The notes: generated by a model from the sequence alone, not told the origin. 64,000 nucleotides of DNA from Octopus vulgaris (GCA_951406725.2 OX597817.1:3720001-3784000), one strand, 5' to 3'; shown: positions 4,089-53,210, counted from the stretch's first letter. A program made the numbers and translations.

Positions 4089-4457
4089 GATCTATACTTA
4101 AGAGATGAGAAATTATGTACATTATTTACATTTGACGGATATTTGTCCTCATCTTATTTGTTGTTAACACAACGTTTCGGCTGATATGCCCACCGGTATA
4201 TAGCGTAGTGGTTAAGAGCGCGTGCTACTAACCCCAAGATTGCGAGTCGATTCTAGGCAGTGATCTGAATAACAGCAACAACAACAACAATAATTATAAC
4301 ATCGAAAAAACCTTAGGAATGAGAACCCAAGTTCGAAATTTCCCCAAGACACCTGATGAAGGCCGGAGGGTATATTAGCCGAAACGTTGAGTTGACAACG
4401 AACAATATGAGGACAAATATCCGTCAAATGTAAATAATGTAAATAATGTATTTCTGA
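4089..4457 (+). mobile_element. Non-autonomous element: inverted partial 3' repeat + tRNA-derived head + hammerhead ribozyme
   Basis: ~4110-4187 is the reverse complement of 4372-4450. A-box TAGCGTAGTGG at 4201 and degenerate B-box GAGTCGATTC at ~4244. HHR core at 4353-4388. TSD-like CTTGTA(C/T)ACA at 4079-4088 and 4458-4467. Confidence 0.75.
4348..4393 (+). ncRNA. Type I hammerhead ribozyme (minimal, PLE-type)
   Basis: gacac-CTGATGA-a-ggc(cggagggtatatta)gcc-GAAAC-GTT-gagtt. The inverted copy at ~4165-4187 reads GAAACGTTGTGTT, which restores stem I gacac/gtgtt. Confidence 0.7.
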
Positions 4458-6671
4458 CTTGTATACATTTTGTTCTAAATGAAACGAGCAGCATGCAAAA
4501 GTCAACCTTGGAAACTATTCTAGAAATTTGTTATGGGCTGCTTCTTCGAAATCCATAATTATATTATCAGGGCCCTTATTCGGCTGTAATTCATTTATTT
4601 TAGCAAAAAGTCTGATTTATGTATCATGACTTTTGTCAGAGAGCAATGCGAACAAACGTGGGGCATTAAACTTATCAATTTGAATGTGACGTATATATAA
4701 CTGAAAACATATTCTAGAGCAGCATTTAAATCTTCCATCTGCCGCCCAGTTCTTGCGCTGTTTAACTGTCGAAGTGCTTCATCATTTGCAAATATTGGTA
4801 TTCGTTTTGTACCTTCCTTATTGCTGTCATTCTGTAAAAACGTTTCATCATTGCCAAGGTCGGAGTATTCACTTGGAATGGAAAACCCAGCATTTGTAAG
4901 TAGAGTGGCAGGATAGTTGGAATCAGCTTACCTCCAAGCTAAGCAAACGGAGGTTTTTGCGACAATGAACAGTCGTTTAAATTCTGAACTTCACTAGCGA
5001 TAAGTAAGCGAGTAGCAACACGAGATGAAATATTTGAAACTATTCTCCTTGCATTTACCTCTGCAGCATTTGAAGCGGGATTATGGATCCCAATCTTCTT
5101 AAGCTCTTTATAATTTTCATCTGTATGAAATGGCACCTTGCACACATGATTTTCGCACCTGCAGTATACCTTCAATCCATCTGCATTCTGCTTATTTTTT
5201 GTGTATATATCATTTTCTTGATCGACCACTTTGATTTTACCTTTCTCAGAAGTTATGATATTGAAGATAGTCATGTTGATGAGTAGGCGTATTGAATAAA
5301 TCTTTGTTCGTAAACTGTTCAGCCCAGATACTTGAGAGATAGATTGTTAGATAGATAGATAGATAGATAGAGAGAGAGAGAGAGAGAGAGAAAGAGAGAG
5401 AGAGAGAGAGCGGTGTTAAAGAAAGGGAAAAATATCTAAAATTTCCCAATGACAATTTTAATTCTAAAGTGATTGTTCTAAACTTTCCCTTGAAAATCAC
5501 ATTTAAAACTATTTTAGCACGAATTGGCCAGCGATGAATTCACCTGGGAAAGAATTGATTAACGATGAATTGACCGGGAACGAATTGTTTAGCACCGTAA
5601 ATATACGTACCGGTGAATATTTTTGCGAGTTCGGTTAACTACCTAATGACCAACAGCAACACTCGATGCAAACACTCGCCTACCTGGAAGACTACGAAAT
5701 TTAACTCTCGTTTGAGGTAAGAGAAAACTTTCTAGAACCAGATGGAATGTTCGGGAGGAAAAGCAATCAAGGCACTGATGTGGGAATGGTTAGACATCTT
5801 TAAAGCGTGGAAGCTTTCCACGAGATATTTCTTTTATTAATGTTGGTAGGTTACTATGATCACGTCTTAGATTTCCGCAGTTGTGTATGAGTAACTGAAA
5901 GCTTTTTAGATATGCTCAAACAATTTATTTATTACTAGATAAGAATAGTGTATGTTATCCATTATTTCGCATAGTTAACTACATAGACATTAAATTTGCG
6001 ATAGTAGTTCAAATCAAATGGATTTCAAAATAGTGTTGACAAATTAACATTAGGCAAAATGTTGCCTAATGTGTGAAAACATAGCTGGTTTTGCTCTCTT
6101 CTTCAAAGGTCAGATCACAGCATTAATCAGTGGGTTTTATAGTGTGCTCATTGCCAGAAAATTGTAGACTAAACAGGGAGTTATAAAGAAAGTACATAGA
6201 GATTGTGAGAAACGAAAACAAAGAAAGAGCTGTAAGGAAAATCGCCACCGACACACTAGCAGTTAGAGTGACCCTCTCCAATTTTTCAACGCTAGTCTCG
6301 AATGGTGCGTTGTTTGAATTCGGGCGCATGCTCCTTGACAACAAAATACGACAGCTCTTTGACAAGCTTAGTAAACAAAGGTATAAATTGGAAATAAATT
6401 TACGAGATAGATTTTCACAATTAGCGAAATGTTTGATGGTAATTTTATCTGAAGATGGAGAGTACAAAGCCTACTTTGAAATGTAAGTAAAGGAACTAGA
6501 TTGCCTGGAAAGGGTATGTAATAAACATCTGTAGTAAGGGTAGTAATGAGATTTTACGCAAGAGCAAATTATTAGGGTTGAACGGGCAGCACTACGGATG
6601 TATTAATTACTCAAATAGAATAACGTACTTATAGCTTTTGTTTTGGCTGATGTGTTTACCAAGAGTGAAGA

Positions 6672-7040
6672 GTAGGTGTGGCTGTGTGGTAACAAACTAG
6701 ATTTCCAACTACATGATTCCTGGTTCACTTGTACTGTGTGGGACCGTGGGAAAGTGTCTTCTACCTTAGACTCGGGCCGATCAAAGTCTTATGAATGGAT
6801 TTGGTTGGCGGAAACTGAAAGAAGCCCATCGTATATGTATGTGTGTGTGTATGTGTGTGCGTGCGCGCGTGTTTGTGCCTCTGTGTGTGTGATCCAGCGG
6901 TTCGGCAAAACAGACTGATAGAATAAGTATTAGGCTTAAGAAAATGTCCTTGGGTCGATTTCCTCGACTGAAAACTTTTCAACGCGATGCCCCAGAATGG
7001 CCGCAGTCAAATGACAGAAATAAGTAAAAGACAAAAGAAC
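6672..7040 (+). mobile_element. tRNA-derived SINE family A (CORE-like, internal microsatellite, LINE-type tail)
   Basis: Aligns to copies at 62411-62880 and 41041-41448. Confidence 0.8.
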
Positions 7041-50716: not shown

Positions 50717-52934
50717 ACATACATACATAAGTAATTTTTACTCTACGGTTCGAGCCATGCCATTGGAGTGAAGAAAATTGGATCGATGGGAACTTTGGGG
50801 AAGCACGTTGAATGGATAGCACTTGCAATTCAAAGGGCAACCCTTGTCACATTGTATGGTGCAGATTCTATCAACAAATTTCATGTCCGGGAAATTCACA
50901 ACATATTCGCACAAATTTACTACTTTTTTCTTCCTGTCTTTCGTTCTTCCCGTCTTTCTTCTTCCTTTCCTACCTTCTAACCAGGCCTACAAACATTCAG
51001 CACACACACACTCACACATATGCACATAAATATAGATGCAATATAGCAAAAAATTGCCTCTTCCTAAATTCAACACCAGATCTTTTCATCTAACATATAT
51101 ATATATATATACATATATACAAGAGGTATAATTTTCTGTAAAAATGTCATTACTGATGAATCTCTCGAATAGGATGAAGGCGCTACATAAATTCCGGCTT
51201 TTTCTTGATATATATATATATATATATATATATATATATATATATATATATAGGGAACCTTTCTGTTTCCGGCCACCAAAACCGTTCCAAAGGTTTGGGT
51301 CGGCCCGATGCTAAAGCAGAAGACTCTCAACAATGGTGCCATGCAGCTGGATAAACCCGTGGCCATGTGTTTCGGAAGCAAACTCCTTACCACACGCCCA
51401 CGCCTGGGACTCCTTGCAAACACTCATACTTATGAACATAGAGTCACATTTATTATCAAACACACATCAATTTACTGCAGGCATCTCAGAATTTAACTCG
51501 TTTTTCTCCGTCCCGGTTCAGTATCGATTTTTTCAGTCTATTTCACCATTATACTTCGTACTTAATTTCTCTTTCTCACTCCTACAACTGTTTCGATTTC
51601 TCTCCAACTCCCTATTCTTTCCTTTCTGTTAGTTGCTCTAGCTTTATTTATATCGCTCTCTTTATCAGTTTTTTCTTTTTCCCTTCATCTCTACCCCATT
51701 CATTCACATTCTGCTTTTTAGATATATAACTTCCTCTCTCAGTCGCTTTTATTCATTCGTATTCATATTTCCAAACAAAATGTCACTCTGTATATGCAAA
51801 ACCCTAATCGTGCTCACTGTATATATTTTTTTATCCCCTCTCTCCTCATGGTTTCTCTCTTTCTCTTTTTCTCTCTCATCACCTAAGCCTTTTTTACAAT
51901 ACACCTCTGCATATCTAGCTTCTATTCCATCTTTTCCTTCTCTGTCACACACTCAAATTCATCATATCACATGGGATCTTTCTCTCTCTTTCTGTCTGTC
52001 TCTCTCACATACACGCATACAGTGTTTGTCTTTTTTTACTTGCACATAAACACATTTACGCATCTACACATATCTACAACAAATTTTTACCGAACAGCTT
52101 ACATTGATTGTCATCTCACACTCTACCCATTCTCTTCTAACTTATACAAACTCTCTCTCTCTCATTGTCTCTGAACGATATCTCTTCTCTCCCCCTTTCT
52201 ATCATTCCCAGAGAAACACGCACTTATTCTATGTGTTATGAATGATAATTATCAATTATGTAAACTGTGGAAACAAATATTACAATGAATTCTATCAACG
52301 GCGCAAGGCTACTCATCATTTTGGAGGGGGAGAAATATAGGAGATTAAATTCACGCGGTACAGATCAGTATTTATTTCAATGAATGCCAACAGGGATAAA
52401 CCCTAATGCCAACTGAGGTAAGAGTTAGAAATGGGTAGAAGATTAGGTGTGTTTTGAAAGGGTCATTTCACAACTAGATGATACTGGGTTCGATGAAACC
52501 ACATTTGATAAAAAGATGTTCTTTTCTAAACTAAACACATAAAAATACAAGAAAAAATGAATACATGACAAGTCATTGTTGAAAAAATTCACTTAAGCAA
52601 TAAACTCAACGCACACAAACACACACACACGCGTAAGCACAAAGGCACAGAGACACACAAAAACGCGCGGCGTACACACACAAGACTCATTTAATTACCC
52701 TCGAAAACATACAAATCAACACATACATACATATATACATACAAAAAAAAATATCCTGTTGTTGACGTTGAAATTCAAACGAAGGAAACTTGGATCTAGT
52801 TTAGAAACCGGTTCTTTCTGTACTGGCAAGAAATCTTAAAATAAACTGAATAATGGCATATATATATATATATATATATATATATATATATATATATGTA
52901 TAAGGATGAAAAGGGACACACGAGTTGATATATA

Positions 52935-53210
52935 TGAAAGAACAAGTCAAGATAGAAAATGCTAAAATAATTTTATAAAGAACATTTCAGTACTGGTTTC
53001 GGTCATTTGAGACCTTTTCAATTGTAACTATTAAATAATTAAATTTAGAAAAATTAAAAGAAAATTTTTTTTAAAAGAATATATGTATAGTGTTCAAATA
53101 CAAGTGGCATTTTCCTTGTTTCCTTGAAAAGGTCTCAAATGACCGAAACCTGTACTGAAATGTTCTTTATAAAATTATTTTAGCATTTTCTATCTTGACT
53201 TGTTTTTTCA
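52935..53210. mobile_element. PLE-type foldback insertion, 87-bp inverted arms, each carrying a U3-A8 hammerhead core
   Basis: 52935-53021 is the reverse complement of 53124-53210. Core TTGAAAA-ggtc(tcaaat)gacc-GAAAC-c(a/t)gt-A-ctg. (TA)n flanks. Confidence 0.75.

Follow-up and report, generated by a model that had tools for sequence, protein, structure and literature searches.

Hammerhead motifs in eight repeat families of an Octopus vulgaris locus: probable 3' modules of Penelope-type insertions, including a candidate SINE with a tRNA-like head

The question raised by this locus is what kind of element carries the hammerhead ribozyme (HHR) motifs that lie in it. The window, by which we mean the whole stretch analysed (Octopus vulgaris, GCA_951406725.2 OX597817.1:3720001-3784000; 64,000 nt, one strand), contains ten such motifs in eight repeat families, A–H, and a preliminary description had read all of these families as retrozymes dependent on the Neptune clade of Penelope-like elements (PLEs). 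The analyses presented here make it quite probable that the ten folds are the 3' modules of eight families that were all inserted by PLE reverse transcriptase (RT) and GIY-YIG endonuclease, families B, H and F being ends of PLEs, D a tandem repeat, C, E and G non-coding units, and A a family with a tRNA-like head. A multi-family ecosystem of hammerheads is mostly known PLE biology in a new host, and the pairing of a tRNA-like head with a hammerhead in family A is the part for which no earlier description was found.

Hammerhead motifs and the protein-coding families B, H and F

All ten type I folds that had been proposed were recovered at their positions, and the estimate of about eight families proved right, with helices that are different in each. 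A relaxed descriptor of the minimal type I hammerhead accepts four of the ten window copies (C3 at 9932-, 36705+, 39040+ and 40300+), against a mean of 0.23 and a maximum of 1 in 30 local dinucleotide shuffles; an earlier, stricter descriptor passes two window copies (0–1 in shuffles), and one tolerating core mismatches was rejected as having no power (5 window matches versus 4–8 in shuffles). The expectation that the motifs exceed shuffled sequence and form a genome-wide, multi-family population was likewise borne out, in that the descriptor gave 14 matches, individually unverified, in 20 random regions of 10 kb, 7 of which contained at least one; 10 shuffles gave 0–1. An Rfam scan at E<=1 reported no hammerhead in the window, in one family A locus or in one D dimer, and its miRNA matches were rejected as TA-repeat or hairpin artefacts. 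A PDB sequence search likewise gave no useful match. Of the six remaining window copies, all damaged or variant, 4348 is mismatched in helix I, 28435 lacks one base at helix III/H17, 36410 combines C4 with a helix II of 2 bp, 38781 carries G17, 52988 is mismatched in helix III, and 53124 is without the 5' strand of helix I.

Seven families (A and C–H) were searched for in the 2.8 Gb genome of 227 contigs, each search giving 695–2560 first-look candidates, of which 40 were scored and the best 25–30 fetched; because only best-scoring candidates were taken, the fetched loci are skewed towards the structure of the query. The hammerhead fold is present in the majority sequence of all seven, and the strict family pattern fits 11/25 loci of A, 14/30 of C, 12/25 of D, 16/25 of E, 20/25 of F, 22/25 of G and 14/25 of H. 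The core CUGANGA/UUGANAA ... GAAA ... UH, together with helices I and II, is found in the majority sequences of A (GACAC/GTGTT, GGCTG/CAGCC, ACGT), D (CCTGAA/TTCAGG, GAG/CTC, ACATATGT), F (TTTC/GAGA, GAAGAC/GTCTTC) and H (CAG/CTG, GGTC/GACY; core U3-A8), and in the 9896 copy of B. Among pattern-fitting copies, the canonical U4 is absent as a family trait from C (C4 in 13/14) and G (C4 in 22/22), and a non-G H17 from E (G17 in 14/16). Helix III is palindromic across families (ACGT, AACCGGTT, ACTC-A-GAGT, ACATATGT, ACAGCTGT, ACCGGT), as had been noticed, except that the AACGTT quoted for A includes A14 and H17, its stem III being ACGT. Single-strand (monomer) folding recovered few of the hammerheads (z between 0.5 and -0.8 for A, B, C and D; -1.9 for F; -3.0 for G); since poor monomer folding is expected for dimer-type motifs, folding was left out of the evidence. 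At least four further hammerhead families were seen in flanks and random regions (L216:199-, L220:7652-/8152+, L229:1803+, L244), one of them as an opposite-strand pair.

Three of the eight families run into protein-coding sequence. Their copies in the window are:

9756..11449, minus: B copy 1, a 5'-truncated Neptune-type PLE between TA arrays, with open reading frame (ORF) fragments at 11447-10367
9937-9896, minus: 3' region of B copy 1, an intact U3-A8 hammerhead followed by a ~55-nt extension
26489..28566, plus: B copy 2, a 5'-truncated Neptune-type PLE with a 437-aa RT + GIY-YIG frame at 26489-27802
28435-28476, plus: 3' region of B copy 2, a hammerhead followed by (TA)n
52900..53209, both strands: H, the 3' end of a second Neptune-type PLE, as two head-to-head copies
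52900-53122, minus: H copy with tail, hammerhead at about 53028-52988
53124-53209, plus: short H copy, head-to-head with the minus-strand copy
38946..39161, plus: F, the 5'-truncated 3' end of a probable PLE with a Hydra-like endonuclease, intact hammerhead at about 39036-39110

The B motifs at 9896 and 28435 lie 450–650 nt downstream of two copies of one ORF, which show 97% identity across 1145 nt and 85% across the 3' 462 nt. The 437-aa frame gives a weak RT match and a Pfam GIY-YIG match and has a C-X4-CxxC linker, of a type described as a Neptune/Nematis feature (Craig et al., 2021, PMC8557442; this and the other publications are cited for the passages compared). At one locus (L152/L182) the H motif continues into RT (PF00078, E 1.3e-6) and GIY-YIG (E 7e-5) sequences that are 52–55% identical to B, this being the 1 of 25 H loci long enough to reach the two frames. 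In both families RT and then a C-terminal GIY-YIG domain lie upstream of the HHR on the same strand, and every copy found is 5'-truncated. Family F has 5' ends that vary by up to ~735 nt among loci and an ORF C-terminus upstream of the motif in 8/25; its longest frame, of 433 aa, ends in YVG...CxxC...CxH, and YVG, CxxC and CxH characterise Hydra PLEs, whose insertions lie in (TA)n (Craig et al., 2021, PMC8557442). Families B and H, and probably also F, are truncated 3' ends of PLEs, and the PLE origin that had been proposed is upheld by their continuation into PLE ORFs. Judged from motifs rather than from a tree, B and H would be Neptune-type and F Hydra-like; because the F ORF has Hydra-type motifs, the earlier designation of Neptune RT/GIY-YIG alone as the machinery was too narrow.

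Family A: a tRNA-like head joined to a hammerhead

The hammerhead at 4348 belongs to a composite of ~250–300 nt that consists of a tRNA-like head, left out of the preliminary description, an (AAT)n spacer and a minimal hammerhead. Its parts in the window, locus L183, are:

4086..4194, minus: inverted 5'-truncated copy of the A 3' end, including the ~34-nt tail
4195..4270, plus: tRNA-like head with A-box and B-box, decayed here
4268..4300, plus: (AAT/AAC)n spacer, variable in length
4301..4450, plus: body with a minimal type I hammerhead at about 4348-4394 (stem III ACGT, one helix I mismatch), stopping at the shorter of two 3' ends

The head, of ~75 nt, carries an A-box in 26/30 loci and a B-box in 27/30, and its weak phage matches (3/3) are all on tRNA genes. 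Linkage of head and body was counted in 54 loci, 30 head-anchored and 24 body-anchored (L156 was dropped as a duplicate of L183): the body lies downstream in 23 of the 30 head-anchored loci, an inverted head or body is present in 5 and only 2 heads are unlinked, and a head is present in 15 of the 24 body-anchored loci. The composite has defined ends. The head starts within positions 1–7 in 37/45, and the sense 3' ends are bimodal, at 139–159 in 25/47 and at 177–187 in 15/47, ~34 nt apart; TTTT occurs in 1 of 15 measurable copies. Inverted partial copies, which had been noticed for several of the inserts, are present here too: a head-to-head inverted copy occurs in 34/54 loci, including that of the window, inverted copies end at 181–185 in 14/29, and one locus (L196) joins a complete inverted copy with tail to a complete sense copy without it. 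An optional tail of 30–40 bp with an adjacent inverted copy marks PLE-mobilised elements, and the 3' end of A shows this PLE-type two-end tail and no LINE-type (long interspersed element) tail.

The density of A, two loci in 200 kb of random sequence, corresponds to ~28,000 copies (Poisson ~3,000–100,000), a rough number because the sample is only 200 kb. RNA-seq of a second organism (3 runs of one study, ~6% of reads; 5,570–7,558 reads mapped per run) contains identical A boundaries and opposite-strand joints from the head 5' end into the body, and therefore the architecture of A is common to both organisms. An older relative (74% identical; L239-L243, match 1501-1592) has a like hammerhead and tail with a different middle part, and in 2/5 loci a decayed tRNA-like head, recognized by eye; no ORF was reached in it. 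Taken as sequence, A is likely an RNA polymerase III (Pol III) short interspersed element (SINE) mobilised by PLE machinery. The fuller proposition, towards which we lean slightly, is that A may be a true SINE of PLEs, in which a tRNA-derived Pol III head is joined to the end of a PLE pseudo-LTR (pLTR; hammerhead and RT-initiation tail), with tens of thousands of copies from at least two waves (A and the older relative), shared by related species.

Several observations weigh against this proposition. Rfam aligned the head to tRNA positions 7–64 at 17.3 bits (gathering threshold 29, E 1), ARAGORN reported no tRNA in the window or in 9 A loci, and the head has no cloverleaf fold (z 0.19). Nine of the 24 body-anchored loci, and both A loci from the random 200 kb, are without a head match. 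The RNA-seq reads of A, for which strandedness is not known, are equal on both strands, and neither at +1 nor at the cleavage site do they begin or stop sharply. An autonomous partner with the A 3' end was not found, the search giving only the older relative.

The headless loci bear on the idea that A is a chance nesting, that is, an ordinary tRNA-SINE with an (AAT)n tail in or beside which PLE 3' fragments preferentially insert: all nine begin in (AAT)n, some after the 3' end of another element, and 7/30 heads have no sense body downstream. We regard this nesting as quite unlikely, given that head, AAT tract and body are inverted as a single unit with the junction at the first bases of the head (L165, L171, L196, L207, L209), that spacers can be shorter than 15 nt (L190, L194) with the body always restarting at one base, that several exceptions are third elements sitting within the AAT tract (L191, L192, L193, L206), and that unlinked heads are so few (2/30). 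For the third elements in the AAT tract, R4/Dong LINEs, which target (TAA)n, may be a parallel.

The absent partner bears on another possibility, in which A would be a composite SINE moved by a LINE of RTE, CR1 or R4/Dong type, with the hammerhead a captured passenger and the inversions arising from twin priming. LINEs are abundant in octopus, and A avoids (TA)n (1/25 loci), unlike families C–G. Considering, on the other side, that the 3' end has no simple-repeat tail and that its two fixed ends ~34 nt apart match the PLE tail of 30–40 bp, that the inversion is present in 34/54 loci with one arm complete to +1, and that A has the minimal hammerhead typical of PLEs, with an additional A following A9, a G10.1-C11.1 pair and a zero-loop ACGT, we consider a LINE-moved A unlikely, and continue to favour PLE machinery as its candidate mobiliser.

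Tandem and non-coding families and a common route of insertion

The remaining four families carry their hammerheads in sequence without an attached PLE frame:

36500..36969, plus: D, 1.19 units of a permuted 355-nt unit (36549-36969) with an inverted piece at 36500-36553; hammerhead 36699-36747
36277..36482, plus: C, an inverted copy with a ~70-nt tail joined to a sense copy with a fixed 5' end, between TA arrays; C4-core hammerhead at about 36410-36455
38688..38878, minus: E, a ~190-nt solo terminal repeat with a fixed 5' end; G17 hammerhead 38815-38781
39730..40668, plus: G, an inverted tail piece at about 39730-39895 and a 5'-truncated sense copy; C4-core hammerhead with a long helix II (40296-40422)

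Family D is a retrozyme-type tandem repeat. Its 5' flank is its own 3' end, and the 25 selected loci all contain between 1.05 and 2.07 units of 355 nt (mostly 1.1–1.5 units), one of them (L086) being a dimer with two hammerhead cores, and two (L092 and L099) having common flanks; the family fits a non-coding head-to-tail unit of 150–450 nt with a type I HHR per unit. Sense and inverted copies of D end ~53 nt apart. A ~300-nt AT-rich near-perfect palindrome at window 37049-37350 adjoins D, with related sequence by D copies in L092, L099 and L101, and could be a hammerhead-less PLE end in head-to-head arrangement. In one random region (L213:2097-4768) a young array (97–100% identical) has 5.6 copies of a 359-nt hammerhead unit and an inverted block of ~1.8 units, between TA tracts; it is a clear retrozyme with PLE-type inversion, and by BLAST is unrelated to D.

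Family D and the L213 array, as a second such family, speak for the view that all eight families are non-autonomous retrozymes moving via circular RNAs with Neptune proteins, as does the proposal that retrozymes are PLE derivatives (Cervera & de la Pena, 2020, PMC7229834; Li et al., 2026, bioRxiv 10.64898/2026.07.22.740005). We nevertheless find this view very unlikely as a general account. It is refuted for B, F and H, three of the eight families, which run 5' into PLE ORFs; in A, C and E the 5' end is fixed and terminal redundancy is absent; and the partner of F is not Neptune-type. The earlier reading of every family as a retrozyme is not supported, failing for these three families and holding for D, which alone of the eight has the tandem, more-than-unit organisation of non-LTR retrozymes.

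Families C, E and G appear to be non-coding units, no partner having been found for the two examined, E and G. The layout of C is the same in 30/30 loci: TA, a 70-nt tail, an inverted copy of variable length, a sense copy with a fixed start, and TA. At its junction in the window (36395-36410) C starts at a TAG ~10 nt ahead of helix I, a fixed 5' start onto which some copies fold back; the arrangement resembles that of D. virilis Penelope, in which an intron ends at helix I. Family E occurs also as E-spacer-E in 4/5 loci (periods 591, 677, 678 and 1140 nt), with no PLE ORF match; a candidate partner, the sequence upstream of L038, was rejected as the non-coding spacer between two E repeats. Family G has variable 5' ends and an optional tail of 182 nt, and its longest copy extends ~1.65 kb in the 5' direction, up to the inversion junction, without an ORF.

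Arrays of (TA)6 or longer are very frequent in this genome (175 in 200 kb of random sequence), and TA flanks were therefore judged against background, a locus counting as flanked if it had (TA)4+ no more than ~25 nt from the sense 3' end. Loci whose end motif was unmatched were dropped (2 of D, 7 of E, 3 of G), and H was left out. By this measure (TA)n is present in C 30/30, D 8/23, E 13/18, F 14/25 and G 11/22, against a background of 4.5%, and family A, at 1/25, is not TA-flanked. The earlier statement that all copies except that at 4348 sit in inserts bounded by (TA)n agrees with the enrichment of C–G and with the exception of A; what it took for inserts at 9896 and 28435 are the 3' ends of the window's two PLE copies with ORFs. 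The enrichment of C–G (35–100%) is an already known PLE trait.

The anatomy of the copies, the two 3' ends, the inversions and the ORF links of B, F and H are observed, and we infer that PLE proteins are the mobiliser of A, C, D, E and G. We suggest a route in which the endonuclease would cut both strands of AT-rich DNA and RT would use one of two fixed starting points that lie 3' of the hammerhead, giving the optional tail; two fixed 3' ends are seen in A, C, D, G and H. Both cut ends would then prime cDNA, and head-to-head joining may give the sense copy and the inverted copy of variable length, a structure that is seen in the insertions. Copies of long PLE mRNAs would be truncated at varying 5' positions (B, F, H, G). 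On short RNAs, copying would run to the 5' end, which in A is tRNA +1 and in C and E a fixed point that is perhaps a start site, and circular or tandem RNA, with circles presumed, would yield the more-than-unit copies of D. In agreement, the protein of one Poseidon element in vitro cuts both strands at AT-rich sites and has two internal RT start sites, by which the tail is defined, and hammerhead cleavage is not needed (Frangieh, 2024, PMC11167929), while PLE insertions carry an inverted truncated copy, a 30–40-bp tail and a (TA)n bias (Craig et al., 2021, PMC8557442). These three features are hallmarks of PLEs, and all eight families fit the mechanism so described. Self-cleavage is probably not needed for spread, because the high-copy families C and G (C4) and E (G17) have non-canonical cores.

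Set against this reading of all eight families are the following. The 433-aa frame of F has no Pfam RT or GIY-YIG match, the RT core is not seen in the truncated copy, and its Atlas match is a cluster with 11% PF01541, a lead only. The family loci, as the best of 40 scored out of 293–2560 candidates, resemble their query, and for D the query itself was more than one unit long. Covariation of the stems, which had been suggested as a check across copies, is only slight within families.

The window contains other repeats. Two LINE RT fragments (PF00078) lie at 12495-13736 (+), directly after a long TA array, and at 45720-46448 (-), and further high-copy short interspersed repeats at 6674-7045, 16419-16841, 25818-26281, 37887-38407, 41038-41448 and 62416-62878, some of them split by central TA/CA tracts.

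Significance and comparison with known systems

SINEs are classed by their LINE partners, and family A, if our interpretation is true, would add PLEs as SINE partners and would define a natural cis module of ~150 nt sufficient for PLE target-primed reverse transcription. Its RNA, with a defined 5' end and two RT start sites, would be a simple substrate for studying the origin of the tail and inverted copy and the need for the hammerhead, and the high-copy C4 and G17 families offer natural tests of the dispensability of cleavage reported in vitro. Moreover, some of the ‘unclassified SINE’ families in octopus repeat libraries may be PLE-dependent. An octopus repeat annotation (2026) includes 190 families of PLEs and 893 of unclassified SINEs with recent activity, and its supplement, as compared here apart from the consensus library, contains no ‘hammerhead’, ‘ribozyme’ or ‘retrozyme’; in giant squid 235 Rfam hammerheads have been reported. 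The full-text papers searched, a set that did not extend to Repbase or Dfam, to the octopus SINE paper of 1994 or to several supplements, gave no tRNA-SINE assigned to PLEs and no cephalopod PLE hammerheads, and ‘non-autonomous Penelope’ in one passing remark, on butterflies.

Cervera & de la Pena (2014, PMC4209133) described genomes with thousands of minimal hammerheads each; these fall into many families, are mostly single, truncated copies, and include some opposite-strand pairs and U3-A8 variants. The minimal type I hammerheads of PLE pLTRs in that work share with ours the palindromic or absent helix III, the extra base after A9 and the U3-A8 variant; cephalopods and tRNA-headed carriers lie outside the passages compared, and G17 in E and C4 in C and G are family-wide departures here. 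The Neptune and Hydra clades (Craig et al., 2021, PMC8557442) are alike in the C-terminal GIY-YIG domain, the CX2-5CxxC linker (B, H) and the CxxC/CxH motifs round the endonuclease end (F), as well as in (TA)n targeting, the inverted 5'-truncated copy and the optional tail, which is ~34 to ~180 nt here versus 30–40 bp there. Non-LTR retrozymes (PMC7229834; 10.64898/2026.07.22.740005) resemble D and the L213 array in non-coding tandem units of ~355 nt, a type I HHR in each and a proposed mobilisation by PLEs, whereas D and L213, known here from their DNA, also show the two ends and the inverted copy of PLEs.

For family A, the octopus tRNA-SINEs OK, OR1 and OR2 (Ohshima & Okada, 1994, via PMC4758252 and PMC4824008) provide a parallel in their tRNA-derived heads; OR1 and OR2 are described as CORE-SINEs, and A, compared with these by description only, may equal OK or a Repbase/Dfam entry. 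Its closest precedent, by analogy, is schistosome Sm-alpha: in Sm-alpha and Sj-alpha (PMC2770079, PMC6765202, PMC8490949) a tRNA-related Pol III promoter, in A a putative one, is followed by a type I hammerhead in a short, high-copy retroposon. Sm-alpha is described as often occurring in tandem, its hammerhead releasing monomers by cleavage, and the passages compared name no PLE partner for it, whereas A is dispersed, its copies standing alone or head to head, and has a minimal HHR and the tail of a PLE. Should our interpretation of A be true, it would suggest that Sm-alpha is an element of the same kind.

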